NCBI RefSeq assembly: GCF_036365525.1
Contig: NC_090378.1
Coordinates: 115,677,593 to 115,741,592 of the forward strand
Source of the DNA: Heterodontus francisci
Taxonomy: Eukaryota
Direction of reading: 5' to 3'
DNA length: 64,000 nt
The translations under genes and the position numbers were made by a program. Each line of letters starts with the position of its first letter. Within the stretch, counting starts at the first letter, position 1. The notes under the pieces are model-generated. The model was not told the DNA's origin. It did no database searches and saw only the letters and a list, made by a program, of their open reading frames with translations. Positions 29,506 through 64,000 of the stretch are shown one piece after another.

Positions 29506-29510
29506 ATTGA

Positions 29511-29538
29511 GGTTTTTGTAAGGCTCTGTTTCACTGTG
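29511..29538 (-). promoter_or_regulatory. V(D)J recombination signal sequence with 12-bp spacer
   Basis: Minus strand reads CACAGTG-aaacagagcctt-ACAAAAACC: consensus heptamer and nonamer, exactly 12-bp spacer, directly 3' of the V coding end. Confidence 0.98.
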
Positions 29539-29836
29539 TAGGGGCTGCTGTATCCTTGCATACAGTAATAATTTGCAACATCCTCACTCTGTACATTACT
29601 GATTGTCAGAGTGTATTTGGTGTTCTGTTGACTGCCGGTGAATCGGTCAGATGTTCCTGTGAAACGATATGTTCCAGCATTGATCAGGAGAGTGGGTTTC
29701 TGACCTTCTCGTTGCTGATACCAAGAAACAAAATTGCTAACGTACTCGCTGGCCGTACAGGTGATAGTTGCGGTCTGTCCCAGTCTCACTGACAGTGTCG
29801 GTGGAGACTGGGTCATGATGATGTCTCCACTGATAC
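29539..29836 (-). CDS. IGKV: Immunoglobulin light-chain V exon, kappa (type III/NS4-like), germline unrearranged
   Basis: Acceptor ...ccctcag|GT ATC AGT GGA. Translates (G)ISG-DIIMTQSPPTLSVRLGQTATITCTASEYVSNFVSWYQQREGQKPTLLINAGTYRFTGTSDRFTGSQQNTKYTLTISNVQSEDVANYYCMQGYSSP, with both Cys, WYQQ and YYC intact. A 12-RSS is the kappa configuration. Confidence 0.95.
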
Positions 29837-30022
29837 CTGAGGGGTAACAGAGAAACAGAGTGAAGTAAGAACTGTGACAGAAATACCCTGCAAAATGAGA
29901 TATTGTTAGAGACAGTAACCGTTCCTCTTGTTTCAGCATTTTCCCTCCAATCACAAGTCAGTAGAATTGGACTGAAATAAACAGCAGGAAAATATTAACC
30001 GTGGAAGGAGAGAGATTTGTAC

Positions 30023-40745: not shown

Positions 40746-40822
40746 AAGTGATTATAATTGTGTCAGTGTGTGTTAATGATAAATGGGTTTCCTTTGGTTA
40801 CACTGGTCATTATTTAATGAGC

Positions 40823-41258
40823 ACCGTTCATCCAGTGCAGTCTCCAGCCAGAGCTCCGTTCATCCAGTGCGGGCTCTGTTCATCCATTGCAGTCTCCAGC
40901 CAGGGCTCCGTTCATCCAGTGCGGGCTCCGTTCATCCAGTGCAGTCTCCAGCCAGGGCTCCGTTCATCCAGTGCAGTCTCCAGCCAGGGCTCCGTTCATC
41001 CAGTGCAGTCTCCAGCCAGGGCTCCGTTCATCCAGTGCAGTCTCCAGCCAGGGCTCCGTTCATCCAGTGCAGTCTCCAGCCAGGGCTCCGTTCATCCAGT
41101 GCAGTCTCCAGCCAGGGCTCCGTTCATCCAGTGCAGTCTCCAGCCAGGGCTCCGTTCATCCAGTGCAGTCTCCAGCCAGGGCTCCGTTCATCCAGTGCAG
41201 TCTCCAGCCAGGGCTCCATTCATCCAGTGCAGTCTCCAGCCAGGGCTCCGTTCATCCA
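40823..41258. repeat. 32-bp minisatellite, ~13 copies
   Basis: Unit TCCGTTCATCCAGTGCAGTCTCCAGCCAGGGC. Confidence 0.95.
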
Positions 41259-41389
41259 TCATGTCAGTAAAAAGTACAAGGTGAAAACCATCTAACTGTA
41301 GTGGAGTCTGTCCGCAGGATGGGGGAGCAGGGAGCTGCATGGATTGGTGAAGGGACTTCCTCTTTCCTCTCAGATACACACCTCCCTGA

Positions 41390-41570
41390 GCTCCATCCCT
41401 TCCTCCGTCTGAACTCCATCCCTTCCTCCGTCTGAACTCCATCCCTCCCTCTCTCTGATCTCCATCCCTCCCTCTCTCTGATCTCCATCCCTCCCTCTCT
41501 CTGATCTCCATCCCTCCCTCTCTCTGATCTCCATCCCTCCCTCTCTCTGATCTCCATCCCTCCCTCCATC
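41390..41570. repeat. 23-bp minisatellite, ~8 copies
   Basis: Unit TCCATCCCTCCCTCTCTCTGATC. Confidence 0.9.
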
Positions 41571-42049
41571 TGTTCTCCATTCCTCCTTCTCTCTATTTCA
41601 GCTGCTGGGAGTCAGATCTGAGCTAGTTACAGTCAATACCATTCAGAATAATGACTGCATATTTTAAATGTAAGTTTGATGAAGTAAATTTGAACAGCAC
41701 CAAAAACATTACAAATGGTTTCTACATACAGCAAAGCAGAAACCAGAGCTTTCTGCAAATAAACACAGAATGGATGAAAGATACAATAAAAGAATTATGA
41801 AGATGATTATCAGAGATGTGTCATTATTATAGTTAAAAAGGTCTCCTTCTCAGTGAAGATATATCCTGCTGAATAATATATACAGACAGGCTGTGCTAAA
41901 GTTGGACAATGTTGAGATGTAGATTTTATATTTTACCAAAAAGCAGAATTGAGTAAACAAGATGTGAACAAGATGATTAGAAATTGTTTACAGACACTGA
42001 TGACAGTCTCTGTGTTCCTCAGGCGGTCCCAGTCGTGTTGTTCACAAAC

Positions 42050-42731: not shown

Positions 42732-43170
42732 ATGTTTTGCAGCCAGCCTGCTCTTCTTAAAGGCAGGCTGTCCCTTTTAAAGGAAATATGAACTGAATAA
42801 TATTGATGTAATTTAAATGGTTTCAAACTGAATGCCAGGGGAGAAAAGGTTCCAGGGTGATGGATGTGATGCTTGAGGCATTAGCGGTAGAGGAGGGTCA
42901 GAGGAGCGATATCATGGATCCTTGGTGGGGGGGGGGGGGGTTGGTGGGCATGGTGTTCAGGAGGCATTGGTGGGAGTGTGAGGATGAGGTGCAGTATCTG
43001 ACTGTCAGAAGTGAATCCTGAGTGCCAGGGATTGGTATTGGGTGAGTGATGGGGGTATGGTACTCTGAGCAGCGGGAGAGGTTGGTGCTGTGCGGAGATT
43101 AGAATTAGAATTAGAACATTACAGCGCAGAACAGGCCCTTCGGCCCTCGATGTTGCGCCGATCATCTGAC

Positions 43171-46068: not shown

Positions 46069-47000
46069 CCCCCCCGAAGAGCACTAACAAATCTCCCCCC
46101 CAGGATATTGGTACCCCTCTGGTTCAGGTGAAGACCATCCTGTTTGTAGAGGTCCCACCTACCCCAGAAAGAGCCCCAATTATCCAGGAAACCAAAACCC
46201 TCCCTCCTACACCATCCCTGCAGCCACGTGTTCAACTCCTCTCTCTCCCTATTCCTCTCTTCGCTAGCACGTGGCACGGGCAACAACCCAGAGATAACAA
46301 CTCTGGTTGTTCTCGCTCTAAGCTTCCACCCTAGCTCCCTGAATTTCTGCCTTAAATCCCCATCTCTCTTCCTACCTATGTCGTTGGTGCCTATGTGGAC
46401 CACGACTTGGGGGTGCTCCCCCTCCCCCTTAAGGATCCCAAAAACACGATCAGAGACATCACGTACCCTGGCACCTGGGAGGCAACACACCAACCGTGAG
46501 TCTCTCTCGTTCCCACAGAACCTCCTATCTGTTCCCCTAACTATGGAGTCCCCAATGACTAATGCTCTGCTCCTCTTCCCTTTTCCCTTCTGAGCAACAG
46601 GGACAGACTCTGTGCCAGAGACCTGCACCCCATTGCTTACCCCTGGTAAGTCGTCCCCCTCAACAGTATCCAAAACGGTATACCTGTTGTTGAGGGAAAC
46701 GGCCACAGGGGATCCCTGCACTGCCTGCTGGTTCCCTTTCCTTCCCCTGACGGTAACCCATCTACCTTCTTCTTTTACCTGAGGTGTGACTGCCTCCCTA
46801 TAACTCCTGTCAATAATCCCCTCCGCCTCCCGAATGATCCGAAGTTCATCCAGCTCCAGCTCCAGTTCCCTAACGCGGTCTGCGAGGAGCTGGAGTTGGG
46901 TGCACTTCCCGCAGATGCAGTCAGCAGGGACACTCTTGGCGACCCCTACCTCCCACATTCTGCAGGAGGAACATACAACTGCCTTTACCTCCATTCCCAC
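46059..47000 (-). CDS. CR1 ORF1p (N-terminal Cys zinc finger, coiled coil, SGNH esterase domain), 313 aa
   Basis: CSSC...CGKC, VRELELELDEL, VIGDSIVR, HIGTND and DGLHLN motifs. Confidence 0.93.
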   Translation of the reverse strand: MGMEVKAVVCSSCRMWEVGVAKSVPADCICGKCTQLQLLADRVRELELELDELRIIREAEGIIDRSYREAVTPQVKEEGRWVTVRGRKGNQQAVQGSPVAVSLNNRYTVLDTVEGDDLPGVSNGVQVSGTESVPVAQKGKGKRSRALVIGDSIVRGTDRRFCGNERDSRLVCCLPGARVRDVSDRVFGILKGEGEHPQVVVHIGTNDIGRKRDGDLRQKFRELGWKLRARTTRVVISGLLPVPRASEERNREREELNTWLQGWCRREGFGFLDNWGSFWGRWDLYKQDGLHLNQRGTNILGGRFVSALRGGLN

Positions 47001-47504
47001 TATTCTAGATTCCCAACAAATCTACTGAAAAACCAAACGAAAAAAAAAAAGTCAAAACTTGTTCGCTTAGCAATCCGACGGACTGAACTTTTTAAATAAA
47101 AAGCTTACCTTTTCAACACACCAGAGTCCTTTTTTTTTTGGTTAGAGGAGGAGGGTGGGTGGGAGACACTACACGTGTAGTGTCTCGGGTACTGCCACTG
47201 CCCAAATAAATAGTTTTCCCTTACCCAGCAGTCCCCTGGTCCTCCGAAACAAAAGGGGATTAACTTGTAACTTACACTGAAATTGACCGCTCAGCTGTAC
47301 GTTCGCTCCGCACCTCGTTCTGTCAAAGCTGCTCCTCGCAAAAAGAAAAAGATTTTAAAACTGCCCAAATAAATAGTTTTCCCTTACCCAGCAGTCCCCT
47401 GGTCCTCCGAAACAAAAGGGGATTAACTTGTAACTTACACTGAAATTGACCGCTCAGCTGTAAGTTCGCTCCGCACCTCGTTCTGTCAAAGCTGCTCCTC
47501 GCAA

Positions 47505-50356
47505 AAATCTGCGGTGAGACCCCCTGCTGCCGATGATGTTGAGGCTGGCTATGGTTATCTTCATGTCAAAGGTACTTAAAACCCATCACCAACAGCTCAC
47601 TGTGAGGAGGGAGTGGAAGTGCACCTGGCCAGGAGCACTTCCACTCCCCCAGCAACCCATTGAGGAACACATTAAAACGGCGCCTCTCAACCAGTTTCAC
47701 GCCCGCGCGCTTGCCCGTTACCTTCAGGGCAGCACGGACAGACTGGATGATCAGCGCCAGATTCGACGAGCGGTCGAGGGCCAGCTGAACTTTATTGCGG
47801 GAGCCCCTGCAAACCGTGAGGAAATCCCGGAGTTCCGCCATGGGGATGAGAGGAGATTCGGTGGGAGGCACGAGGGACTCCACCACCTCACTGGCGATGG
47901 AATCAGGATCATCCTCCGTGCCCCACACCGAATCCCCATCCTCCTCCGGGTCGTCACCGCCAGCGGCCGACACGCCCACCGCACACTGTGGGGTGGACGT
48001 CCTGGCCGCGCCAGCTGGTCCCGCCTCCGTCACGATCCCACCCCCAGGATCGATGGCGGAGGAGTCCTCTCTGGGTTCTATTGTGAAACTGGAGCCTGTA
48101 GGCACCAGCGGTTCAGGACCTCCCTCTACCTCCGTCCCCAGGCCAATGAGTGGTCCAGGGGAGACAGACGTTCCCGACTCCGGAAAACCAGCCGGAGCCG
48201 AGACTGGAGGCGGAGAGAGGAGGCCATCTCCCGCTCCGCCTGCACCCACAGGCCCAGCAGATGGGGCAGCATTCTCGGTTATAACCGGGTCGGGTGTCTC
48301 TTGGTTGGTTGTGGACTCCAGCTGGGAGGGCCGACCCTCTGGGGCCTCGCCCTCCCCTTCACCCAGGGCACCCGACCCAGTAGCAGTGGCGGAATGGTCG
48401 GAGTCCCCAGGCTCCCCCACCACAAGCAGGGCCCCACTTACTCCTTCAGGATGGGGCCTCATGTACCGGGGCCTTCCCCTCCCCTCCATCCTGAGGAATA
48501 GGGAGCTCCTGCCCAGACTTTGTAGCCTTGGTGGTGGTGGTAGGGGAAACCTGGGGACCTGAGACAGGAGACAGCTCCCCTCCAACAGATGGGCCCTGCG
48601 CCTCAGGGCCCCTTATTACGTCTGTGGAGGGATGCCTTCTCCTCTTTTTCCCACCAGGGCGCAGAGGCTCAGAGACCTCCATGTCATCAGAGGCCTCCGC
48701 CTCCGAACTCTCTTTTTTCTTATTCACCCTGGGCCTGAGCCCACCCCTGGGGCAAATTGACTCCCCGAGATCGGGCTTTTCGCTGCGCTCAGACTCTGGT
48801 AGTGTTATGGTGTCCAGGGGACGCGCCTCTCGATGTTTATTTCTCCTCCGCGCCTTCCTTCCAGTTGGACGGTCACCCACCTCCCTGCCGGAGGCCGTGA
48901 AAACCACAGCCTCCGGTACCGACTGAATGGTATCTGGTGGAGGTGTGGGGTGGGAGGAGGTGCAGCTGCGCCACCCTGGGCCGCCAAGTTGGAGGTGGCA
49001 GCCGGGAGGTTGGGGCAGTTCTTACGAACATGCCCCACCCCCTTACAGACATGGCACCGCGGCCCATCCAAGGTCCAGAAGACGCGGTAGGCCGTCCCCT
49101 GGAATGCTACATTAAAGTGGCCCTCTGTCACCTCCTCCCGTGCCAGCTGCATGAATAACTGGCGGCGGAAGGAGTACACATGTCGGAGGCTGTTCTCCCG
49201 AAGACCGAGCGGGACTGGGGTGAGCCCCGTCTTTACCTCCCCCAGATGGTGCAGGTGGGGAAGGAGGAGCTCACCAGGAATGAAGGGCGGGACGTTGGAT
49301 AAAATGACCCTATGCGCAGTGGCCTCCAGGGGGTCCACTGGCAGAAAGGTCCCGCCCACGGTGAGCCCCTTGCTCAGAGCCAGGGACACCGCCCGCTCGG
49401 TCTTCAGGAATAACACTGCCTTCCCATACATTTTAGAGGCTGCAACAATAGCCGAAGGGCTGACAACCTCAGCCATTGCTTTCACACATGCCTCGATAGT
49501 CATGTTCGGGTGGACGTAGCTCTTGACTCCATGCTTAGATGTTATTAGCGCAAACGGTGACGGGGCAATAGGTGCAGCTGCAGCAGCCGCAGCAGCATAT
49601 GAATGGGAAGGCCCCGCCACCGGCGAAGAGGGGCTTGCCATGGGGTCGCAGAGCTACGCCCACCCCCAAGAAACAAAGCACACGACAGTTTTCTTTAACA
49701 CAAACAATATGATGGGGGAGGGGGGGATGGGAATAGAGGAGGATAGGGCTGAAAAGGACAAGGAGAGGAGAGGATAGGTGGCCGAGTGATGGAAGAGAGA
49801 GAACAGCTGCAAGGATGTTTCTTCAATTGGTGGTTGGAGCACCTTCCTGCAGAGTCGACAGTCCACTCTTCCAGTTAGGGGAGGGTTCTCGCCCGGGTCG
49901 GTTAGAGCCGCCCGATTCTCTCCCTTTTCTGTTGTTGTATAAGGATTTTCTTCAGCCGGGGAGCTCCAGCCGTCCCGAGCCACACAGTCGGGGGTGGGGA
50001 GGGAGCCCCTTTTGTGCAGGATGGCAGATAAACACAAGAGCTAGTACAGGGGCTCCCTATAGAATTTGGCAGCCCCACCCCTGGATCTTCCGGTGCCTTC
50101 TCCCTCCCCCAACAGTCCAAACAACCAACAGTTCTCTGGTGCTCCAACACCCACCTCTCCAAAATGACTCTCAGGTCTTCTTAGTCTTGAAAATGTGCAA
50201 CAGTTCCACAGTAAATACAGCTGTCTCCACTCGACAGTCACCTCTCTGCAGTAACTCCAGTCTCCTCGCTCCTCTCCAGTTGCAGTTGCAGCAACACAGG
50301 TGCAGCTGCTCCCCCTGATTGCAGACAGGAAGTGCTTCACAAATTGCCCAGCCAAT
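47505..50356 (-). mobile_element. Tx1-clade LINE copy A: 5' UTR, frameshifted ORF1, first ~20 codons of ORF2; 3' part lost at the CR1 junction
   Basis: ORF1 from 49641 (MASPSSPVAGPS..., CHVCKGVGHVRKNC zinc knuckle) is broken into three frames. ORF2 start MKITIASLNI at 47564. 5' end ATTGGCT abuts CCCG of the target repeat. Confidence 0.93.
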
Positions 50357-50428
50357 CCCGTGCTGTACCTGTCCTGGGAGTGTTTGATGGGGACAGTGGA
50401 GAGGGAGCTTTACTCTGTATCTAACCCA
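50357..50428. repeat. ~68-bp target repeat, unit 1
   Basis: CCCGTGCTGTACCTGTCCTGGGAGTGTTTGATGGGGACAGTGGAGAGGGAGCTTTACTCTGTATCTAACCCA; recurs at 51557-51622 and 57396-57440. Confidence 0.93.
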
Positions 50429-51538
50429 TTTTTTTTTTTATCTGGCCTTCAAGTCATTTATTGAGCAGATCAATTCAAAGCCCCAACACTTTCACCCCAG
50501 GACATAATCAAGGCAACTCCAAAGTGCAATTAGCAGCATCTAAATGACTGAGTCGACAAATCAAGTTTTGCATTAACTGTTTCCCAGAACAAGGTACATC
50601 ACTGCCATGAAATGTCAGCACTTCACCATGCAATTAATTATTAACCCATTCTATGCAATTTGGCTTTTTCTGTCAAGAGGAAGTGTTAACAGTTGAACAC
50701 AGGAACAATTAACAATTAAACTCCAAGAGTCTCTAAACAATTACATTAATACAATTAAGGCCACACCTTGGCCAAGTTTTATAGAAATCTGTATTGCTGC
50801 AAAATGAACATTTAAACATATCAGCACTATACAGACGTTACAGATAGAAATAAGCCATAATAGATTAAGACTGCATCAAAGTGTTGAAAAGAGTTTGCTC
50901 AGAAAACAGTTCCCGCCATGGACAATGAGGTCCTGCCAAAATCGATTTGCTTCAATTCCCACCTCCAAAGACATCATGGTATTGTTGTTGGTGGTGTTCT
51001 TGTTTTATGATTTGCAATGCCTGAAACACGCCAGCGGACAACATCACGATGAAGATTAGGAAGACAAGGATGCTCAGCACTGTGGTTGCAATGTTGAGTG
51101 CCCGGGCTGTAGACGCATAGTGCCGAGCTCCTTCGACATCTCCCACAACTTTCCGATCTCTAGACATGACCGAGAAAACCAGCGCCACGAATCCAAGGCA
51201 GCAGAAATTCATGTAGAAGAAGCTGAAGAGAGACCAGAGCAGGTGGTCCCGGATCGGGCGAACATTTGGGGCCAGGTTAATGATGGTGGACGGGACCGAC
51301 TGACCGTCCTCCTTCAGGCACTGGTAAGGGGAGGTGTGGCGATTCATCGGCACTTGGTCCGCTCTGTACTCCATCCTGGATACAGTGTCAGTGGGAGAGC
51401 GAAGTGCATGTGAAGCGCTCCCGATTCGGCAATTTATAGACTGGGGTGGAGCAAGAGACTGGAACCACCTCCAACAAACCAACTGACAGAGTCTGTCATG
51501 CTCCTGAGTTTTAATCAATCAGTTTACTTTCAGAATGT
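50429..51538 (-). other. Processed retrocopy of an IFITM-family mRNA (upstream segment, CDS, 3' UTR, poly(A))
   Basis: AATAAA at 50457-50462, 17 nt before an A11 tail (50429-50439). TAACCCA(T...) is duplicated on both sides (50422 / 51539). No intron. Confidence 0.88.
50952..51374 (-). CDS. IFITM: Interferon-induced transmembrane protein (IFITM/CD225 dispanin family), 140 aa, intact and intronless
   Basis: RDHLLWSLFSFFYMNFCCLGFVALVFSVMSRDRKVVGDVEGARHYASTARALN is the CD225 core, with the CC pair and GxxxG. N-terminal YQCL (YxxPhi) motif and C-terminal TM helix. Confidence 0.93.
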   Translation of the reverse strand: MEYRADQVPMNRHTSPYQCLKEDGQSVPSTIINLAPNVRPIRDHLLWSLFSFFYMNFCCLGFVALVFSVMSRDRKVVGDVEGARHYASTARALNIATTVLSILVFLIFIVMLSAGVFQALQIIKQEHHQQQYHDVFGGGN

Positions 51539-51556
51539 TAACCCATTTGTTTTTAT

Positions 51557-51622
51557 CTGTACCTGCCCTGGGAGTGTTTGATGGGGACAGTGCAGAGGGA
51601 GCTTTACTCTGTATCTAACCCG
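51557..51622. repeat. ~68-bp target repeat, unit 2
   Basis: CTGTACCTGCCCTGGGAGTGTTTGATGGGGACAGTGCAGAGGGAGCTTTACTCTGTATCTAACCCG followed by a T-tract. Confidence 0.93.
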
Positions 51623-51641
51623 TTTTTTTTTAATCTAACCC

Positions 51642-54600
51642 TATTTTTATTTCCAAGGTGGCCTTGATACCCAAGGCCCCTTTTATATATTCTATGTCGA
51701 GGGGGCCTTTATTCCTCAGGCCCCCTTTATAAACATACTTATATATTTTTTAATAACTTTATTAAAACCAGAAATAAACAAAAACTCAAATTAAAATGCC
51801 ATTCTCGGCGTCGACAATGCACTCCAGTCCCTGCGGTGCCCACCGGTCGCGGAAGGCCTCAAGCGTACCGGCGGACACCGCATGCTCCTTTTCCAGGGAC
51901 ACCCGGGCGCGAACGTAACCGCGGAAGAGGGGCAGGCAATCGGGGAGGACGGAACCCCCGATGGCCCGCAACCTGGACCTGTGAATTGCCACCTTGGCCA
52001 GGCCCAGGAGCAGACCGACGAGGAGATCCTCCTCCCGGCCCAAGCCCCTCCGCACCGGGTGCCCAAAGATCAGGAGCGTGGGACTGAAGTGCAGCCAGAA
52101 TTTGAGGAGCAGCCCCTTCAGATACTCAAAGAGGGGCTGCAACCTCGCACACTCCGTATAAACGTGGAAAACGGACTCGTCCAGGCCGCAGAAAGTACAG
52201 GCGGCCTGGGAGTCCGTGAACCTACTTAAAAGTCTATTGCACGGGACTGCTCTGCGCAGCACCCTCCATCCCAGGTCCCCGATGTAAATGGGGAAGACTC
52301 CCGCGTAGAGAGACCTCCATCGGGGTTTCCCCTCGCCGCCAGATGGCAACGCGGACCGCCAGGGCGTGTCCGGCCGGCTGACGAGGGCGAGGAAGTGGAG
52401 AGTGTGCAGGAGCAGCCCGTACAGGAAACCCCTCCGCACCGATTGGAATGGCACGGAGGGCATTTCCGAGAGGCGGCTCGGGTTGTGCGGGACCGGCTCC
52501 CAAGGAGGGACTCGGGGCCTGGGTCCGATGAGCAGTTCCGGCCAAGCGGGGGTCAGCTCGGCCGGGTTCGCTCCGCACTCCCGAGCCCCCTCGCAACCCG
52601 CAGTGAGGGGCGTCCCGGGGGTTTCGGCTACTCCTCCGCCCGCCGGACCGTCCCCGGAGTCGGCTGCCCGGACGGCCGAGGCGCTCTCCTCCGCCGGCAG
52701 TGGAGCGCCCTGACTGGAGGCGACCATGTTCCAGACTCGGAAAAGATCCCGGTAAAAGACAGGCAACTCCCTCAGAGAGGCGCGGCTAACATACTCCACC
52801 GGGAGCTGCGTGTCGTCTTGAAGGCAGTGACACTGGCGGAAAAAATACGTCGCCAGTGCACACCATCTGGGAGGACGATCGACGTACAAGTATCTCTGCA
52901 GGGTCCGAAGGCGGAGAGTCGCAGCCTGGGTGCGGACGCACACCAGCGACTGACCGCCCTCCTCAATCGGGAGACTCAGGACCGCGGCAGAGACCCAGTG
53001 TTTCCTCTTGCCCCAGAGGAAATCGACGAGTTTCTTCTGGATCTTGGTGGCAAATACAGGGGGCGGGGCCAAAGTGACCAACCGGTACCACAACATGGAG
53101 GCCACCAGTTGGTTTATGACCAACGCTCGGCCCCTGTAGGAAAGCACTCGGAGCATTCCTGTCCAGCGCCCCAGCCGAGCGGTGACTTTCGCCTCCAACT
53201 CCTGCCAGTTTGCAGGCCAGGCTTCCTCAGCGGGGCTAAGGTGGACTCCCAGATAGAGGAGGTGCGTGGTGCTCCACGCAAAAGGTGTCATCTCCTCCGG
53301 CAGGGAGTCCACCCGCCACTGACCCACTAGGAGTCCGTAACATTTCTCCCAGTTGATCCTCGCAGAGGACGTGGCAGAAAAGGTCTGCTGGCAGTCGCGC
53401 ACCCTCCGCAAGTCAACGGGATCTGTGATTGCGAGGAGCACGTCGTCGGTGTAAGCCGAGAGGACGACCCGCATGGCCGGCTCGCGCAGAGCCAATCCCG
53501 TCAACCTCCTGCGAAGCAGGCACAGGAAGGGCTCCACGCAGATGGTATACAATTGGCCGGACATGGGGCATCCCTGACGCACTCCTCTCCCAAAGCGAAC
53601 GGGCGCCGTCAAGGACCCGTTAACTTTGACTAGACACTCTGCGGCGGCGTATAAAAGTCGGACCCAGGCCAAAAAACGAGTCCCGAAATCGCTCGTCCTC
53701 CAGCAGCCGGTTGTTAAAGTGTCGGTACGCGGACCCCGCCCGCGTGCGGAGCGGCGTGAACTCAGACCACACCAAGCGGTGGTCCGAGCACGGCACCAGC
53801 CGCATGGAGGCCATTGAGACGCGGGAGGCGTACGCCTGCGAAATGTAGAGGCGGTCGATTCGCGACCCTCCTCTTCCAGACCTCCACGTGAAGGCGCTGG
53901 AGGCGGGATGGAGATTCCGCCAGACGTCCACCAAGTTAAGGGAGCTGATCAGTCCCCTCAACTTCTCCACCGACGCTTGGCCGTGCTGGGGACCGGAGCG
54001 ATCCCCCACCTCGAGGGTGCAGTTAAAATCCCCCCCGAGGATGATGCACTCGCCGCTATCGATGGAGCTCAAGAGAGCGGACACTTCTTCAAAGTAGCAC
54101 GCTTGCAACGCGCTAGGCCTGGGCGCGTGCACATTCACAAAGTGGAGCGGCACGCTACCCAGGCGAACGGCAAGGTGGAGCAAGCGGCCCGGCACTAGCT
54201 CCTTGACCCCCAAGATCTCCGGCTGAAAAGTCGGGGCCAACAAGATAGCCACCCCACTAGAAATAGGGGTGAGGTGACTTATGTAGACCCCACCCTGCCA
54301 CTCCAGGAGCCAGGTGGCTTCGTCTCCCGGAACGGTGTGGGTTTCCTGCAAAAAGCTCACCGCGTATCTCCCTTCCCTGAGGACTGAGAGATTGTGAAAT
54401 CTGCGGTGAGACCCCCTGCTGCCGTTGATGTTGAGGCTGGCTATGGTTATCTTCATGTCAAAGGTACTTAAAACCCGTCACCAACAGCTCACTGTGAGGA
54501 GGGAGTGGAAGTGCACCTGGCCTTCCACTCCCCCAGCAACCCATTGAGGAACACATTAAACCGGCGCCTCTCGACCAGTTTCACGCCCGCGCGCTTGCCC

Positions 54601-57148
54601 GCTTTCATAAGGGCGGCACGGACGGACTGGATGATCAGCGCCAGATTCGACCAACGGTCGAGGGCCAGCTGAACTTTATTGTGGCAACCCCTGCAAATCG
54701 CGAGGAAATCCCGGAGTTCCGTCGTAGGGATGAGGGGAGATTCGGTGGGAGGCATGAGGGACTCCACCACCTCACTGGCGATGGAATCAAGGTCATCCTC
54801 CGTGCCCCACACCGAATCCCCAGCCTCCTCCGGGTCGTCACCGCCAGCGGCCGACACATCCACCACACACTGTGGGGCGGACGTCCTGGCTGCACCAGCT
54901 GGTCCTGCCTCCGTCACGATCCCACCCCCAGGATCGATGGCGGAGGAGTCCTCTCTGGGTTCTACTGTGAAACTGGAGCCTGTGGGCGCCAGCAGTTCAG
55001 GACCCCCCTCTACCTCCGTCCCCAGGCCAATGAGTGGTCCAGGGGAGACAGAAGTTCCCGACTCCGGAAATCCAGCCGGAGCCGAGACCGGAGGCGGAGA
55101 GAGGAGGCCATCTCCCGCTCCGCCAGCACCCACAGGCCCAGCTGATGGGACAGCATTCTCGGTTATAACCGGGTCGGGTGTCTCCTGGTTGGTGGTGGAC
55201 TCCGGCTGGGAGGGCCGACCCTCTGGGGCCTCGCCCTCCCCTTCACTCAGGGCACCCGACCCAGTAGCAGTGGCAGAATCTGCCGCGTCCTCAGGCTCCC
55301 CCACCACAAGCAGGGCCCCACTTACTCCTTCAGGAGGGGCCTCATGTACCGGGGCCTTCCCCTCCCCTGCATCCTGAGGAATAGGGTGCTCCTGCCCGGA
55401 CTCTGTAGCCTTGGTGGTGGCGGTAGGGGAAACCTGGGGACCCGAAACAGGAGACAGCTCCCCTCCAACAGATGGGCCCTGCGCCTCAGGGCCCCTCGTT
55501 ACCTCTGTGGAGGGGTGCCTTCTCCTCTTTTTACCACCAGGGCGCAGAGGCTCAGAGACCTCCATGTCATTAGAGGCCTCCGCCTCCGCACCCTCCTTTT
55601 TTTTAGTCACCCTGGGCCTGAGCTCAGCCCTGGGACAGGTGGATTCCGTGACAACGGGCTTTGGGCTGAGCTCAGGCTCGGGTTGTTTCAATGTGTCCAG
55701 GGAACGCGCCTCTTGATGTTTCTTTTGCCTCCGCGTCTTCTTTCCACTCTGACGGGCACTCCCCTCCCCGCTGGAGGCTGTGAAAACCACAGCCTCCAGA
55801 ACCGACTGAGCGGTGTCTGTTAGATTGGTGAGGGGAGTGGGAGGAGGTACTGTGGAACCACCCTGGGCCGCCGAGGTGGAGCTGGCGGCCGGGAGGTTGG
55901 GGCAGTTCTTACGAACATGCCCCACACCTTTGCAGACGTGGCACCGCGCCCCGTCCGAGGTCCAAAAGACGCGGTCGGCCGTCCCCTGGAACTCCACATT
56001 AAATTGGCCTTCCGAGTCCTCCTCCTGCGCCAGCTACATAAATAACTGGCGGCGGAAGGAGTAGTTGGAGGCTGTGTTCCCGAAGACCAAGCCGGACTGG
56101 GGTCTTCCCCGATCTCACCTCCCCCATGTGGTGCAGGTGGGGAAGGAGGAACTCACTGGGAATAAAGGGCGGGACGTTTGATAACATTATCCGCTGCGCA
56201 GTGGCCCCTAGAGGGTCCACCGGCAGGAAAGTCCCACCCACAGTGAGCCCTTTATTCAGGGCCAGGGACACAGCCCGCTTGGTCTTCAGGAAGAACATAG
56301 CCTTCCCGTACATTTTTGAGGCTGCCACAATGGCCGAGGGGCCGACAACCTCGACCATTGCCTTTACACAGGCCTCTATAGACATATTGGGGTGGGGATA
56401 GCTCTTTACCCCATGGCTTGAAGTAATTAATTTAAAAGGTGACGGGGCCACACGGGCGGCCACAGAGGCTACAGCCGCATCGGTATGAGAAGGCCCCGCC
56501 ACCGGTGATGATGGGCTTGCCATGGCTCAAGAGCCAAACCCACCCCCAAATTGCAGGCAAGCAAACAAACAAACCAACTAGGAGGTTTGGGGAGAGGCTG
56601 AGGGTATACAGGAAATTGGAAAGACAGGCTGCAAGCGATGACTTTGCTTTTTTTTTCTCCTTAAAGGGTGGTACTCAGAGCACTGTAAACACTCCTGGTC
56701 TTCCGGTCTTTCGGTCTTCTGGTTGTGGGAGGGGTCTTCACCTGGGTCAGCCGAAAGCTGCCCAGGCTCTCGTTCAATCTTTATGTCTCTGTGGCCAGGC
56801 AGCTTCAGCTGACCCAGGCTGGGCAATTAGGGTGGGGAGGGAGCTTCCTTGTGTATTCAGTGTAATTGCACAGCTCCCTATAGTATTGTACAGCCCCCAC
56901 CCCTTGTTGTTCCGGCCTCTTCCACCTCCCACAACGCTCCAAATGAAATGAAAGTTTGGTGCTCGACACCCACCTCGAAATACAGCTTTTTTGTCCAAGT
57001 CTTTCCTCTGCAGCAAAGGCTGTTGAAAGGTTTTTTGCAGTTCCTTCCTCAGCACTCCCTCTCCAGCAGCACCTCCAGCAACTGACTGCAGCACTATCAG
57101 CTGCACCTCGTTGAGGCACTCAGTATTCCCAATCACCGAGGAGCCAAT
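51642..57148 (-). mobile_element. Tx1-clade LINE copy B, both ends present but defective
   Basis: 5' end ATTGGCT. ORF1 (56523-54489) has a 5-bp deletion near 56064. ORF2 (54456-51786) has a ~1.07-kb internal deletion at ~53673 and YADD changed to YTDD. 3' UTR and A-rich tail present. Confidence 0.95.
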
Positions 57149-57153
57149 CCCCG

Positions 57154-57372
57154 TTTTTTTTTTTAACTTTGCAAAACATAGCTTTATTTGTCGTGCAGAT
57201 ACACCGACAGTTTATGCAGTGCTGGAGGAAGCCATTGCGGTGCGTCTGGGCTTTGGGGTGGTCCCTTCACGGAATCCATTCCTGAATCTGCGATACACCA
57301 CCTTCAAGTGCCTCATGCGGCCTGTACCAGTTGTATTTCTCCTTTTGGCTTTAGTACTCCAGTTGTACTTCC
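57154..57372 (-). pseudogene. RPL37: 5'-truncated processed pseudogene of 60S ribosomal protein L37
   Basis: 57370-57212 translates [52 protein letters not shown] (C-terminal half of eL37). AATAAA at 57183-57188, A11 tail at 57154-57164, flanking TCCCCG duplication. Too short to appear in the ORF track. Confidence 0.95.
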
Positions 57373-57395
57373 CCGTTTTTTTTTAATTTTATTTT

Positions 57396-57440
57396 ATGGG
57401 GGACAGTGTAGAGGGAGCTTGACTCTGTATCTAACACCCG
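57396..57440. repeat. ~68-bp target repeat, partial unit 3
   Basis: ATGGGGGACAGTGTAGAGGGAGCTTGACTCTGTATCTAACACCCG followed by the T9 tail of copy C. Confidence 0.9.
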
Positions 57441-57582
57441 TTTTTTTTTAAGGTGACCTTTATACCCCAGGCCCCTTTTATATATTTTTTGTCGAGGGGG
57501 CCTTTATTCCTCAGGCCCCCTTTATATACACGCTTATATTTTTAAAATAACTTTATTAAAACCAGATAAATAAAGAAAAAAC

Positions 57583-60500
57583 TCAAATTAAAATGCCATT
57601 CTCGGCGTCGACAATGCGCTCCAGTCCCTGCGGTGCCCACCGGTCGCGGAAGGCCTCAAGCGCACCGGCGGACACCGCATGCTCCTTTTCCAGGGACACC
57701 CGGGCGCGAACGTAACCGCGGAAGAGGGGCAGGCAATCGGGGAGGACGGAACCCCCGACGGCCCGCAACCTGGACCTGTGAATTGCCACCTTGGCCAGGC
57801 CCAGGAGCAGACCGACGAGGAGATCCTCCTCCCGGCCCAAGCCCCTCCGCACCGGGTGCCCAAAGATCAGGAGCGTGGGACTGAAGTGCAGCCAGAATTT
57901 GAGGAGCAGCCCCTTCAGATACTCAAATAGGGGCTGCAACCTCGCACACTCCGTATAAATGTGGAACACGGACTCGTCCAGGCCGCAGAAAGTACAGGTG
58001 GCCTGGGAGACCATGAACCTACTTAAAAGCCGATTGCACGGGACTGCTCTGTGCAGCACCCTCCACCCCAGGTCCCCGATGTAAAGGGGGAAGACTCCTG
58101 CGTAGAGAGACCTCCATCGGGGTTTCCCCTCGCCGCCAGATGGCAACGCGGACCGCCAGGGCGTGTCCGGCCGGCTGACGAGGTCGAGGAAGTGGAGAGT
58201 GTGCAGGAGCAGCCCGTACAGGAAACCCCTCCGCGCCGATTGGAATGGCACGGAGGGCATTTCCAAGAGGCAGCTCGGGTTGTGCGGGACCGGCTCCCGA
58301 GGAGGGTTTCGGGGCCTGGGTCCGATGAGCAGTTCCGGCCGAGGTGACACCCGCTCGGCCGGGATCGCCCCGCACTCCCGAACCCCCTCGCCACCTGCAG
58401 TGAGGGGCGTCCCGGGGGTTTCGGCTACTCCTCCGCCCGCCGGACCGTCCCCGGAGTCGACCGCCCGGACAGCCGAGGCGCTCCCCTCCGCCGGCGGGGG
58501 AGCGCCCTGACTGGAGGCGACCATGTTCCAGACTCGGAATAGATCCCAGTAAAAGACAGGCAACTCCCTCAGAGAGGCGCAGCTAACGGACTCCACCGGG
58601 AGCTGCGTGTCGTCTTGAAGGCAGTGACACTGGCGGAAAAAATACGTCGCCAGCGCACACCATCTGGGAGGACGCTCGACGTACAGGTATCTCTGCAGGG
58701 TCCGAAGGCGGAGAGACGCAGCCTGGGTGCGGACGCACACCAGCGACTGACCGCCCTCCTCGATCGGGAGACTCAGGACCGCGGCAGAGACCCAGTGTTT
58801 CCTCTTGCCCCAGAAGAAATCGACGAGTTTCTTCTGGATCTTGGTGGCAAATACAGGGGGCGGGGCCAAAGTGACCAACCGGTACCACAGCATGGATGCC
58901 ACCAGTTGGTTTATGACCAACGCTCGGCCCCTGTAGGAAAGCACTCGGAGCAGTCCTGTCCAGCGCCCCAGCCGAGCGGTGACTTTCGCCTCCAACTCCT
59001 GCCAGTTTGCCGGCCAGGCTTCCTCAGCGGGGCTAAGGTGGACTCCCAGATAGAGGAGGTGCGTGGTACTCCACGCAAAAGGTGTCATCTCCTCCGGCTG
59101 GGAGTCCACCCGCCACTGACCAACCAGGAGTCCGGAACATTTCTCCCAATTGATCCTCGCGGAGGACGCGGCAGAAAAGGTCTGCTGGCAGTCGCGCATC
59201 CTCCGCAAGTCAACGGGATCTGTGATTGCGAGGAGCACGTCGTCGGCGTAAGCCGAGAGGACGACCCGCATGGCCGGCTCGCGCAGAGCCAATCCCGTCA
59301 ACCTCCTGCGAAGCAGGCACAGGAAGGGCTCCACGCAGATGGTATACAATTGGCCGGACATGGGGTACCCCTGACGCACTCCTCTCCCAAATCGAAGGGG
59401 CGCCGTCAAGGACCCGTTAACTTTGACTAGACACTCTGCGGCGGCGTATAAAAGTCGGACCCAGGCCACAAAATGCGGCCCGAGTCCGAAAGCGCGCAGA
59501 GTCCCGAAAAGATAATCGTGATCCACCCTGTCGAACGCCTTCTCCTGATCGAGGGAGAGAAAGGCGACCGACTGACCAGTCCTCTGGGAAAGATGGATCA
59601 GGTCCCGGACCAGGTGGATGTTGTCCTGGATGGACCGGCCCGGGACCGTGTAGGACTGGTCGGGGTGGATCATGTGGGCCAGCACGGAGCCCAGGCGGGT
59701 AGACATAGCCCGGGCAAAGATCTTATAATCCGTGCTGAGGAGGGAGACCGGACGGCAGTTTTTAAGGAGGCGGAGATCGCCCCTCTTCGGCAGCAGGACG
59801 ATGACCGCCCTGCGCCACGAGAGGGGCATCTCCCCGGTCGCCAGGCTTTCCCCCAGGACCCGCGCGTAATCGTCCCCCAGGACGTCCCAGAACGCCCTGA
59901 GGAACTCCACGGTCAACCCATCCAGCCCTGGGGATTTGCCCCTCGAGAGCTGGTGGAGGGCACCAGTCAGTTCCGCCAACGTGAGCGGAGCCTCCAATCC
60001 TTCGGCGCTCTCATGGCTGACCTGCGGCAGGTCCTCCCACAAAACTCTGCGCGCATCCTCGCTGGACGGATCCGGAGAGAACAACGCACTGTAATAAGTC
60101 CGGACCAGGAGGCCCATTCCCTCCGGATCCATGATGGAGGATCCGTCGTCGGCCAGCAGCTCGACGAGCTGCTTACGGACCCCCCGCCATTTTTCCAGCG
60201 AGTAGAAGAAGGGTGAGGCGCGGTCCAAATCTTCCAGGATCTGGATCCGCAACCTCACGTACGCGCCTCGGGACCCTATGAGCTGCAGTTCCCTCAGCGC
60301 GCCCTTCTTCTCTTTGTACACCTGCCACAGGGCCGGGTCCACGACGGCATGACCGAGGCGGGACTCCAAGTCGAGCACCTCCCTCTCAAGGCGCCCGATC
60401 TCGGCTTCCCGCCTCTTGGTCGACCCCTTCGCGTACTCCTGACAGAAGACGCGGATGTGAGTCTTGCCCACATCCCACCATAGCCTCAAGGAGGGGAAGC

Positions 60501-61320
60501 CCCCCTGCTTCCTTCCCCCGTCGGCCCAGAATCGACAGAACGAGTCCCGAAATCGCACGTCCTCCAGCAGCCGGTTGTTAAAGTGCCAGTACGCGGACCC
60601 CGCCCGCGTGCGGAGCGGAGTGAACTCCGACCACACCAGGCGGTGGTCCGAGCACGGCACCAGCCGCATGGAGGCCGCCGAAACGCGGGAGACGTACGCC
60701 TGCGAAATGTAGAGGCGGTCGATTCGCGACCCCCCTCCTCCAGACCTCCACGTGAAGGCGCTGGAGTCGGGATGGAGATTCCGCCAGACGTCCACCAAGT
60801 TAAGGGAGCTGATCAGTCCCCTCAACTTCTCCACCGACGCTTGGCCGCGCTGGGGACCGGAGCGATCCCCCACCTCGAGGGTGCAGTTAAAATCCCCCCC
60901 GAGGATGATGCACTCGCCGCTATCGATGGAGCTCAAGAGAGCGGACACTTCTTCAAAGAAGCGCGCTTGCAACGCGCCGGGCCTGGGCGCGTACACATTC
61001 ACAAAGTGGAGCGGCACGCTACCCAGGCGAACGGCGAGGTGGAGCAAGCGGCCCGGCACTAGCTCCTTGACCCCCAAGATCTCTGGCTGAAAAGTCGGGG
61101 CCAACAAGATAGCCACCCCACTAGAAATAGGGGTGAGGTGACTCATGTAGACCCCACCCTGCCACTCCAGGAGCCAGGTGGCTTCGTCTCCCGGAACGGT
61201 GTGGGTTTCCTGCAGAAAGCTCACCGCGTATCTCCCTTCCCTAAGGACTGAGAGATTGTGAAATCTGCGGTGAGCCCCTCTGCTGCCGTTGATGTTGAGG
61301 CTGGCTATGGTTATCTTCAT
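57583..61320 (-). CDS. Tx1 ORF2p, 1245 aa: APE endonuclease, reverse transcriptase, C-terminal CCHC
   Basis: SLNING, LQETH, GGDFN, RIDR, SDH; SPGLDGL, DQEKAFD, RQG, YADD; CTFCGLDESVFHIYTEC. Confidence 0.96.
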   Translation of the reverse strand: MKITIASLNINGSRGAHRRFHNLSVLREGRYAVSFLQETHTVPGDEATWLLEWQGGVYMSHLTPISSGVAILLAPTFQPEILGVKELVPGRLLHLAVRLGSVPLHFVNVYAPRPGALQARFFEEVSALLSSIDSGECIILGGDFNCTLEVGDRSGPQRGQASVEKLRGLISSLNLVDVWRNLHPDSSAFTWRSGGGGSRIDRLYISQAYVSRVSAASMRLVPCSDHRLVWSEFTPLRTRAGSAYWHFNNRLLEDVRFRDSFCRFWADGGRKQGGFPSLRLWWDVGKTHIRVFCQEYAKGSTKRREAEIGRLEREVLDLESRLGHAVVDPALWQVYKEKKGALRELQLIGSRGAYVRLRIQILEDLDRASPFFYSLEKWRGVRKQLVELLADDGSSIMDPEGMGLLVRTYYSALFSPDPSSEDARRVLWEDLPQVSHESAEGLEAPLTLAELTGALHQLSRGKSPGLDGLTVEFLRAFWDVLGDDYARVLGESLATGEMPLSWRRAVIVLLPKRGDLRLLKNCRPVSLLSTDYKIFARAMSTRLGSVLAHMIHPDQSYTVPGRSIQDNIHLVRDLIHLSQRTGQSVAFLSLDQEKAFDRVDHDYLFGTLRAFGLGPHFVAWVRLLYAAAECLVKVNGSLTAPLRFGRGVRQGYPMSGQLYTICVEPFLCLLRRRLTGLALREPAMRVVLSAYADDVLLAITDPVDLRRMRDCQQTFSAASSARINWEKCSGLLVGQWRVDSQPEEMTPFAWSTTHLLYLGVHLSPAEEAWPANWQELEAKVTARLGRWTGLLRVLSYRGRALVINQLVASMLWYRLVTLAPPPVFATKIQKKLVDFFWGKRKHWVSAAVLSLPIEEGGQSLVCVRTQAASLRLRTLQRYLYVERPPRWCALATYFFRQCHCLQDDTQLPVESVSCASLRELPVFYWDLFRVWNMVASSQGAPPPAEGSASAVRAVDSGDGPAGGGVAETPGTPLTAGGEGVRECGAIPAERVSPRPELLIGPRPRNPPREPVPHNPSCLLEMPSVPFQSARRGFLYGLLLHTLHFLDLVSRPDTPWRSALPSGGEGKPRWRSLYAGVFPLYIGDLGWRVLHRAVPCNRLLSRFMVSQATCTFCGLDESVFHIYTECARLQPLFEYLKGLLLKFWLHFSPTLLIFGHPVRRGLGREEDLLVGLLLGLAKVAIHRSRLRAVGGSVLPDCLPLFRGYVRARVSLEKEHAVSAGALEAFRDRWAPQGLERIVDAENGILI

Positions 61321-61352
61321 GTAAAAGGTACTTAAAACCCTTCACAAACACC

Positions 61353-63391
61353 TCACTGTGAGGAGGGAGTGGAAGTGCACCTGGCCCTCCACTCCCCCAG
61401 CAACCCATTGAGGAACACATTAAAACGGCGCCTCTCAACCAATTTCACGTCCGCACGCTTGCCCGCTTTCTTCAGGGCGGCACGGACGGACTGGATGATC
61501 AGCGCCAGATTCGACCAACGGTCGAGGGCCAGCTGAACTTTATTGCGGCAACCCCTGCAAGCCGCGAGGAAATCCCGGAGTTCCGCCGTGGGGATGAGAG
61601 GAGATTCGGTGGGAGGCATGAGGGACTCCACCACCTCACTGGCGATAGAATCAAGGTCATCCTCCATGCCCAACACTGAATCCCCATCCTCCTCCGGGTC
61701 GTCACAGCCAGCGGCCGACACATCCACCACACACTGTGGGGCGGACGTCCCGGCTACGCCAGCTGGTCCTGCCTCCGTCATGATCCCACCCCCAGGATCG
61801 ATGGCGGAGGAGTCCTCTCTGGGTTCTGTTATGAAACTGGAGCCTGTGGGCGCCAGCAGTTCAGGACCCCCCTCCACCTCCGCCCCCAGGCCAATGAGTG
61901 GTCCAGGGGGGACAGACGTTCTCGACTCCGGAAATCTAGCCGGAGCCGAGACCGGAGGCGGAGGGAGGAGGCTACCTTCCGCTCCACCAGCACCCACAGG
62001 CCCAGCAGATGGGGCAGCATTCTCAGTTTTCACCAGGTCGGGTGTCTCCTGGTTGGTGGTGGACTCCGGCTGGGAGGGCTGGCCCTCTGGGGCGTCGCCC
62101 TCCCCTTCATTTAGGGCACCCGACCCAATAGCAGTGGCGGAATGGGCGGCTTCCCCAGGCTCCCCCACCACAAGCAGGGCCCCACTTACTCCTTCAGGAG
62201 GGGCCTGTGTACCGGGGCCATCCCCTCCCCTCCATCCTGAGGAATAGGGAGCACCTGCCCGGACTTTGTAGCCTTGGTGGTGGCAGTAGGGGGAACCTGA
62301 GGACCAGAAACAGGAGACAGCTCCCCTCCAACAGATGGGCCCTGCACCTCAGGGCCCTGTGTTATTTCTGTGGAGGGGTGCCTTCTCTTTTTCGCACTTG
62401 GGCGCGGAGACTCAGAGACCTCCATGTCATCAGAGGCCTCCGCCTCCACTTTCTTTTTTTCCTTTCTTGTCACCCTCGGCCTGAGCCCAGCCCTGGGACA
62501 GGTGGATTCCATGGGAATGGGCTTTGGGCTGAGCTCAGGCTCGGGTTGAGTCAAAGTGTCCAGGGGACGCGCCTCATGATGTTTCTTTTTTCCCCGCGTC
62601 TTCCTTCCGCTCGGATGGACGCTCCCCTCCCCGCCGGAGGCTGTGAAAACCACAGCCTCTGGAACCGACTGAGCGGTGTCTATTGGATGTGTTGGGGGAG
62701 TGGGAGGAGGTGCTGTGGAACCACTCTGGGCCGCCGAGGTGGAACTGGCGGCCGGGAGGTTGGGGCAGTTCTTACGAACATGCCCCACCCCCTTGCAGAC
62801 GTGGCACCGCGCCCCGTCCAAGGTCCAAAAGACGCGGTAGGCCGTCCCCTGGAACTCCACATTAAATTGGCCCTCCGTGTCCTCCTCCCGCGCCAGCTGC
62901 ATAAATAACTGGCGGCGGAAGGAGTAGACATGTTGGAGGCTGTGCTCCCGAAGACCAAGCCGGACTGTGGTGATCCCCGACCTCACCTCCCCCAGATGGT
63001 GCAGGTGGGGGAGGAGGAGCTCACTGGGAATGAAGGGTGGGACGTTGGACAACATTATCCGATGCACAGTGGCCCCCAGAGGGTCCACTGGCAGGAAGGT
63101 CCCCCCCACAGTGAGCTCTTTACTCAGGGCCAAGGACACCGCCCGCTCGGTCTTCAAAAAGAACACAGCCTTCCCAAACATCTTTGAGGCCGCAACAATG
63201 GCCGAGGGGCCGACAACCACGGCCATTGCCTTAACGCAGGCCTCAATAGACATGTTGGGGTGGGGATAGCTCTTCACCCCATGGCTGCATGTCAACAATT
63301 TAAAGGGTGACGGGGCCACGTGGGCAGCCACAGAAGCTGCAGCTGCGTAGGTAGTAGAGGGCCCCGCCACCGGTGATGAGGGGCTTGCCAT
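61353..63391 (-). pseudogene. Tx1 ORF1 (zinc-knuckle protein), interrupted by a 1-bp deletion near 62206
   Basis: The 401-aa and 272-aa ORFs join into one ORF1 when aligned to copy B (ggcctcatgtacc versus ggcctgtgtacc). CHVCKGVGHVRKNC knuckle present. Confidence 0.9.
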
Positions 63392-64000
63392 GATCTAAGA
63401 GCTAAACCCACCCCAAATTGTGGACTTGCACACAAATATCAGCGATTCACCAAAAATATTGAATGTGTATTGAAACAAAGCAAACAACAACAGGTTAGTG
63501 GAGAGGCTGAGGTAATAGAGGAGAGGCAAAGGCAGGCTGTATGGGATGACTTGCTTTCCGGAGGTGGTGCTCACAGTACACTTAAAACAGTCTTTGAAGT
63601 TGGTCTTCCGGTCTTCTGGTTGGGGGAGTCGTCTTCACCTGGGTCAGCTGAAGCTGCCCAGGCACTATCTATCCCCTTCCGTCTGTTTAGCTGGGCAGCT
63701 TCAGCTGACCAAGGCTTGGCAATTGGGGTGGGGAGGGAGCTTTCCTGTGTGCTTGTGCAGCAGCACAGATTCCTGTTGAATTGGCAGCCCCACCCCTTGT
63801 TGTTCCAGCCACTTGTTCCTCCCCCAACAGTCCAAAGTAAATTACTGGTGTTCAGCACCCACCTCCAGACAAAGCCTTGTTTCCAAAAAAATGTCTCTTT
63901 CTTCTCTTTAATGGAGACTGTTGTTGAAGTTTCACCTCTGCTTAGTTGTAGCTGCTCTCCCTTGCTCAGTGTAGCTCCTCTCTCCACCTCTGCAACCTCC

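Follow-up and report, generated by a model that had tools for sequence, protein, structure and literature searches.

The window considered here, a stretch of 64,000 nucleotides of the shark Heterodontus francisci (contig C8, 115,677,593-115,741,592, of a 6.0-Gb genome), holds between positions 47505 and 64000 a stack of insertions in a short tandem repeat: three copies of a LINE (long interspersed nuclear element), labeled Tx1-A, Tx1-B and Tx1-C, and two retrocopies of host mRNAs, IFITM and RPL37, all on the minus strand. Genome-wide comparison of junction sequences demonstrates the site, AACCC(C)R^TGCTG within a dispersed repeat of 68/69 bp, the polarity of the insertions, the enrichment in host copies, and the transduction of target DNA. 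The mechanism that, taken as a whole, we consider probable is the following. A LINE close to Tx1L would nick the plus strand at this site, and would prime reverse transcription on any bound poly(A) RNA: its own, that of a short interspersed nuclear element (SINE), a host mRNA, or a transcript crossing the repeat. A short duplication would keep CC(C)R^TGCTG behind the insert, the primer-side half staying in front, and the locus could be hit again in the same orientation, making the stack grow. The same enzyme would nick looser ^TG or ^TTG sites elsewhere; and read-through past the short tail of the element, with polyadenylation in the repeat, would move pieces of the target, units and small stacks. 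An earlier note on this DNA had proposed the site preference, the enrichment and the polarity, all of which we retain, together with reuse through the primer side, micro-inserts as separate events and strict targeting, which are not supported as worded.

The exact left half of the site occurs 34,715 times in the genome, and a tract of eight T begins within 1-3 bases of it in 4,988 cases, both figures being matches and not events. T-tracts at 30 other positions of the unit amount to 41 together, 14 of which we read as shortened units ending at the same site, and T-tracts in the opposite orientation at the site number 2: a Tx1-type LINE with a preference for this position, and a near-absolute polarity, are thus borne out. 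The repeat is real, with the announced length of 68 bp refined to 68-69 bp. In the window, the five tails start after AACCCA, AACCCG, CCCCG, CCCCG and AACACCCG, where the rule formulated earlier was a start after TAACCC(C)G/A or CCCCG; the remaining tracts (three of at least eight T, one of A) are all internal to elements.

A scan of 46500-64000 against Rfam gave nothing near gathering score, so that by Rfam the target belongs to no known small nuclear, ribosomal or transfer RNA family; two weak microRNA matches were rejected, their scores being far under the cut-off. Two runs that are guessed to be RNA cover the repeat unit at great depth. At C8:114.33-114.35 Mb and C19:88.26-88.28 Mb, T-bearing units have been re-amplified into higher-order tandem arrays. 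The nick follows TAACCC, one vertebrate telomere hexamer, and the site matches, among those listed, cluster near contig ends. A Tx1 family of anole is described as targeting telomeres in excerpts of PMC11406177, PMC5753468 and PMC10088271.

The enrichment in host copies was evaluated blindly, with three genes, RPL38, RPL36 and RPS21, chosen before their flanks were seen. These genes returned 11, 11 and 4 matches, and each set includes a single parental exon, which leaves 23 retrocopies; these searches score the best candidates, and the counts are thus samples. On the site are 2 of 10 copies for RPL38 (L148, L150), 2 of 10 for RPL36 (L152, L153), and 0 of 3 for RPS21, that is, 4 of 23, all in the same orientation. 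With a chance per insertion of about 6e-5 for 100,000 sites, this is an excess of about 3,000-fold (p ~1e-13); under the laxer null hypothesis of a landing anywhere in 200,000 units, p is 2e-7. The suspicion that host copies share a coordinate beyond what random insertion allows is therefore supported at the scale of the genome. Three of 15 other copies of RPL37 are also on the site, and a fourth, whose 3' end is missing, lies directly next to the repeat. The two remaining IFITM copies with a tail (2/2) are on the site as well, and seven tailless fragments are elsewhere.

The search can also start from the site. A pattern combining site, tail and poly(A) signal has 307 matches, and 30 loci, plus 14 fetched ones, yield RPS26, RPS14 (twice), RPS27, RPL37 and ubiquitin-RPS27A. 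A cation ATPase and RPL35A were matched weakly; also present are inserts resembling SINEs and several 3' ends without a name. Loci L097 and L117 look to us like RPL30 and RPS3A, presumably; a Pfam search gave no match for these two, nor for the 52-residue RPL37 piece of the window.

Both host copies of the window are processed retrocopies, with intron loss, untemplated poly(A) and a flanking duplication. The IFITM copy joins two exons found on C14, the break falling at query 379/381 with splice ends on both sides, and the RPL37 copy joins two exons 5.7 kb apart on C36, where a genomic A-tract is absent from the 3' end of the parent. The true parent of the IFITM copy did not turn up in the assembly, whose best matches reach 90-91%; short-read contigs show a closer copy.

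The open reading frame (ORF) 2 of Tx1-C is open over 1245 amino acids (57583-61320) and contains an APE endonuclease and a reverse transcriptase (PF03372 and PF00078, both above cut-off). It is 54% identical to Xenopus Tx1L ORF2 over 947 residues (55% over residues 1-800, E 2.6e-277), human L1 ORF2p scoring E 1e-76. We take this identity as sufficient to place the LINE in the Tx1 clade of retrotransposons that lack long terminal repeats (non-LTR), as a close relative of Tx1L. Tx1L itself was rejected: the endonuclease hairpin loop has 7 residues (WRSGGGG), instead of 11 with RDGH, and the target is not Tx1D. The shorter loop may be linked to looser targeting. ORF1 lies upstream in the three window copies and is broken in all three, by a frameshift in Tx1-C; a Pfam search with it gave no match. 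The 3' ends are poly(A), except that Tx1-A lacks its 3' 3.8 kb and is without a tail in the window. A 20-base motif of the Tx1 tail has 1,713 matches genome-wide, and the identity of the copies to Tx1-C spans 84% to 98%, which implies that several subfamilies exist. An old Tx1 3' fragment, 74% identical to Tx1-B and Tx1-C, lies away from the repeat at 342-701 (plus strand), and at three loci (L025, L081, L111) a T-tract is followed directly by the first 15-60 bases of the Tx1 5' end, then by the repeat.

How strict is the targeting? Of the 51 matches to the tail motif on contig C1, 26 are on target, 11 lie off target and carry a piece of the unit, 12 are plainly off and 2 unclear; adding 15 of the 25 matches on C2 and four picked on C3 yields 32, 18, 18 and 2 (n = 70), in classes assigned by eye, often from the left flank only, some copies sharing a stack. 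Both on-target fractions (26/51 and 32/70), with this by-eye scoring, exceed the level of 20% of flanks in one sequence used by Kojima to call a Tx1 family target-specific. Targeting is a preference, and the strict version proposed initially is not supported: the share off target is about half for Tx1 copies and about four in five for retrocopies. Off target, the sequence that resumes after the duplication begins with TG or TTG at 17 of the 20 sites for Tx1 and 7 of the 9 for retrocopies, against a background of 0.15 in flanking DNA (p = 9e-12 and 5e-5, respectively), in a test that took 20 of the 35 off-target Tx1 copies and 9 of the 29 off-site retrocopies; 12 of the latter had a duplication call, three of which (L055, L063 and L149), being weak or distant, were set aside. 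Resumption at TTT+A was seen at 0 of these 29 sites (0/20 and 0/9). Since off-target Tx1 copies and retrocopies both resume at TG or TTG, as the target does, the simplest reading of the junctions would be a single Tx1-type enzyme that has a strong site and falls back on loose ones, and we infer that the ORF2p of this Tx1 family made the host copies.

Several points weigh against this reading, beginning with the by-eye classes and the partial samples just described. The ORF2 of Tx1-C departs from Tx1L at two conserved positions, its activity being a prediction; the genome-wide counts are inflated by the re-amplified arrays of C8 and C19; other poly(A) elements, of unclassified family, are present at the site (L104, and behind L056 and L150); and 19 of the 23 blind retrocopies are off target, versus about half of the Tx1 copies, so that other enzymes probably contribute. 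The last two points, and the range of subfamilies, would also be expected if the host copies were made by one or several sister Tx1 families with the same or an overlapping target, the family of the window being one user of several. We regard this as unlikely: the window family is the commonest identified occupant of the site in both 30-locus samples, and off target it has the signature seen in the retrocopies too.

Very unlikely, in our opinion, is that a canonical L1-type endonuclease re-cut the T-tracts of older insertions at TTTT/AA, an alternative raised in the earlier note, with RPL37 as a fitting case. A T-tract does follow the 5' duplication in both window retrocopies, RPL37 can be parsed with a duplication of 14-16 bp ending in T9-AA, and the junction of one copy off the site (L049) reads T^AA. 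However, 15 of 21 on-site host copies (7/11 gene-first, 8/10 site-first) have no T-tract behind their 5' duplication, the observation that had been called for to implicate the Tx1 enzyme; they run straight into the repeat, and old tails are thus not needed. Moreover, the AA after the T11 of RPL37 is the mRNA's own end in most other copies; T11 is within the normal tail length of 8-11, and the L1 parse would leave a tail of 2 bases; TTT+A is absent from the nine off-site retrocopies, and the on-target nick is CC(C)R^TG. Among the RPL37 retrocopies L046-L057, tails are mostly short, with 8-11 T.

It is equally improbable that a few on-site landings were multiplied by 3' transduction or by tandem duplication of stacks. 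Stacks do move as blocks, L114 and L140 being small stacks within one duplication, and they duplicate locally (L117/L118, L135/L136). But Pfam or family searches put names to at least nine distinct genes at the site; RPL37 copies, on five contigs, have differing 5' ends and two parent states; and the duplications at L152, L124 and L050 repeat the local variant of the site, which means that these copies landed in place. Finally, an artefact in the assembly of repeat-rich DNA is hardly credible, even if, in a comparison covering 50300-51700 with runs that may stem from the assembly's own sample, short-read contigs fully bridge one junction alone (the IFITM 5' junction, without differences, 51254-51580, in the best-matching sample; another DNA contig crosses the 3' junction with just 27 letters on the repeat side), given that the three Tx1 copies differ by 5-13%, that each insert has its own duplication, and that the layout is repeated at dozens of loci, spread over many contigs.

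With one Tx1-type enzyme as the preferred reading, there remains the question of how a site is used again. Reuse had been attributed to the surviving primer-side sequence, and the junctions do not bear this out as it was worded. The window RPL37, an IFITM copy (L033) and a Tx1 copy (L082) each sit at the 5' junction of a Tx1, where the left half is reduced to CC(C)G; at L084 the left side is AACCCA alone; and at L118 a Tx1 fills the CCCG^TGCTG still empty in the duplicate L117. Inserts are thus found where only CC(C)G and the downstream half remain, and the downstream half with a short duplication suffices: reuse often proceeds through this half-site, and not only through the primer side. Loci L140 and L148 allow a re-cutting of the primer-side half, before the old tail. 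For the window, the likely order is Tx1-B, then RPL37, then the micro-insert that follows it. Identity to the nearest fetched copy (89% for Tx1-A, 97% for Tx1-B, 98% for Tx1-C) is too coarse a dating to fix the order of insertion.

The target itself also moves. Among the 51 Tx1 copies of C1, 11 carry a piece of target, and in 8 cases a duplication of unrelated DNA surrounds piece and element together. The enclosed layout, T-tract, unit piece, T-tract, Tx1, is found at L087, L089, L092, L168-170, L185, L187-189, L191, L205 and L206, with a whole unit carried at L188; L171 and L190 were not counted as duplications, their matches not being adjacent to the insert. An unrelated duplication around the whole block implies that the RNA continued beyond the tail and received its poly(A) within the repeat. 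The same explanation probably applies to the piece ahead of Tx1-B, AATCTAACCCTA followed by a T-rich tail: its CCCTA mismatches the CCCCG of the 5' duplication of Tx1-B, and its layout recurs inside the unrelated duplications of L087, L092 and L168. The piece had been counted among micro-inserts that were each a separate event; it reads better as target DNA carried by 3' transduction.

At L137, a T-led array of 607 bp, with five intact sites and without the Tx1 tail motif, is flanked by a 12-bp duplication and resumes at TTG. Judging from these ends, the landing pad itself is retrotransposed, here as a five-site array moved whole. Among the isolated arrays sampled, 129 of 159 blocks have no starting T-tract, hence retrotransposition is one route of spread and not the sole one. 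Micro-inserts, detected from 18 bases upwards, resume 21-37 bases before the site in 19 of 23 cases, as do 16 of 30 isolated T-led pieces. We infer their origin within the proposed mechanism. The AGTAAA of the unit may set their length, which fits these 19 of 23; that the true retrocopies L095, L106 and L130 also resume deep in the unit counts against this idea.

The closest known case is that of the crocodilian Tx1-Mar LINEs and SINEU, for which a repeat target, a shared preference and an inferred trans mobilisation are reported (Kojima 2015, PMC4494074). As far as the excerpts of that article go, the two systems have in common a Tx1 preference for a repeat, a non-autonomous RNA sharing it, and tandem inserts that sandwich a duplication. 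The cargo of Tx1-Mar consists of dedicated SINE families, whereas that of the shark element consists of ordinary spliced mRNAs of many genes; and its target is a Mariner transposon, whereas the shark target is a short tandem repeat that is itself retrotransposed. A shared target preference, the basis for trans mobilisation, is visible here both in the common on-site position and in the off-site signature.

Xenopus Tx1L inserts in Tx1D (PMC1950540, PMC4494074), and its endonuclease is reported to be sequence-specific in vitro, nicking almost only its site (PMC1950540). Host-mRNA capture, proposed for the shark element, does not appear for Tx1L in the excerpts of PMC1950540 and PMC4494074. Besides the resemblance of ORF2, with its endonuclease and reverse transcriptase, the two elements share insertion into another repeat; as described in these sources, they differ in their target, and in that about half of the shark copies are off target while the Tx1L endonuclease is nearly site-exclusive in vitro.

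Mammalian L1 elements perform 3' transduction, and 5' inversion by twin priming. They also produce processed pseudogenes, through a poly(A)-dependent capture of cellular mRNA (PMC3747384), and their TTTT/AA consensus is described as loose, with several hundred thousand sites (PMC1950540). On these accounts, capture of poly(A) mRNA, short duplications, 5' truncation, one 5' inversion and 3' transduction are common to L1 and the shark element; unlike with L1, one position and orientation of the shark repeat takes about one sixth of the retrocopies, and transduction copies the target itself. TRE5-A of Dictyostelium is, like the shark LINE, a targeted L1-like non-LTR element, with the opposite stringency toward RNA: according to excerpts of PMC3159450, it needs its own 3' end, in a genome without processed pseudogenes.

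A survey of vertebrates credits CR1 or Tx1 with keeping up the formation of retrocopies outside mammals, and counts 14,081 retrocopies in cartilaginous fishes (bioRxiv 10.64898/2026.06.26.734816). Its argument is a correlation of genome contents, target sites not being mentioned in the excerpts at hand; the shark junctions offer direct sequence support for Tx1. In the literature searched, there was no report of this repeat, of this Tx1 family or of site-targeted mRNA retrocopies, Repbase, which may catalogue the family and its target, being outside the search. Site-directed capture of host mRNA and retrotransposition of the target itself were thus not found in print.

Retrocopies are usually viewed as landing on loose consensus sites, and the shark LINE would join an L1-like capture of RNA to a Tx1-like targeting, with evidence at the level of junctions on which enzyme makes retrocopies outside mammals. 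A target-specific element that copies its own target suggests one way in which such targets could arise and spread, and each stack is an ordered record of insertions. One step further, the LINE and the repeat could form a self-propagating landing-pad system, one ORF2p spreading the arrays, filling them, and steering about one sixth of new retrocopies to one nucleotide of a repeat; we place this conjecture a little short of an even chance. If it is true, any poly(A) RNA could be written by the enzyme at a defined site, some of the retrocopies having intact ORFs. A natural open ORF2 bears on the combination of relaxed RNA choice and DNA specificity in one enzyme, and on RNA-templated gene insertion, a promise limited by the off-target rate of 50%.

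The order and coordinates of the inserts along the plus strand, re-derived from the sequence, are as first described, and are given in Table 1. The repeat unit at 50361-50428 has an intact unused site at 50360^50361 and a used one at 50428^. The IFITM retrocopy has an intact ORF of 140 amino acids (50952-51374) and is followed by AACCCA, TTTGTTTTTA, the unit 51557-51622, and T9. The RPL37 copy has 4 private changes and crosses the exon junction of its parent. Past the window, the 5' end of Tx1-C is followed by further units, a T-tract micro-insert, and a ubiquitin-RPS27A retrocopy (window-equivalent 64283-64875), whose 5' part is inverted, with a 13-bp duplication, at the same coordinate of the repeat. 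The stack thus extends about 0.9 kb past 64000, for a total of three Tx1 and three host copies.

Table 1. Insertions and repeat units of the stack, in plus-strand order (UTR, untranslated region).
Feature	Position	Strand	Remarks
Tx1-A	47505-50356	-	5' UTR, broken ORF1, first bases of ORF2; 3' part absent; 87-88% to Tx1-B and Tx1-C
CCCG duplication and one repeat unit	50357-50428 (unit 50361-50428)	+	Unit like that of pure arrays
T11 tail and IFITM retrocopy	50429-51539 (IFITM 50440-51539)	-	Pfam CD225, E 1e-25; intron lost
AACCCA (6-bp duplication), short T-tract, then unit from 2 bases inside the site	51540-51622	+	
T9, 12-base target piece, Tx1-B tail	51623-51654	-	Probable 3' transduction carried by Tx1-B
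Tx1-B	51655-57148	-	5' and 3' ends present; internal deletion of 1.05 kb (53675-53686); broken ORF1
CCCCG, T11, 5'-truncated RPL37 retrocopy (57165-57370), CCCCG	57149-57375	-	98% to other copies
T9 and AT-rich piece (micro-insert), then 44 unit bases (57397-57440)	57376-57440	+	Ends in AACACCCG
T9 and Tx1-C	57441-64000 (Tx1-C from 57450)	-	5' end about 70 bases past the window

The IFITM copy extends, with 51405-51539, about 100 bases upstream of a TATAAAT (51425-51431, minus strand), presumably a TATA-like motif, and this upstream part is collinear with genomic DNA 5' of an exon 1 on C14: a core promoter may be part of the copy. Two runs (X5, X6), taken by guess for RNA, show the letters of another IFITM copy at many places and leave 51381-51521 uncovered. 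The seven tailless IFITM fragments (L039-L045), some of them inside CR1-like DNA, end within about 20 bases of one mRNA position just past the stop codon, a shared end that suggests a second copying route. Two RPL36 copies at the site (L152, L153) have open full-length frames, and an RPS26 copy (L095), also at the site, a near-full one; at L148, the RPL38 fragment is polyadenylated within the coding sequence and wedged between Tx1 copies.

Elsewhere in the window, a 61-bp satellite of about 465 copies (1198-29505) ends at an immunoglobulin V gene, a light-chain-like V-set segment at 29451-29939 on the minus strand. This V gene, the CR1 elements and a protein match of 92% to a shark indicate a cartilaginous fish as the source. 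Two young CR1 copies, 98% alike and inverted, lie at 30999-33059 and 43101-46994, the second with an ORF2 frame of 880 amino acids and a GDSL-esterase ORF1. Tandem arrays have periods of 44 bp (33349-35190), 16/32 bp (40819-41258) and 23 bp (41382-41594), and a 163-bp tandem duplication (47197-47507) abuts the broken end of Tx1-A.

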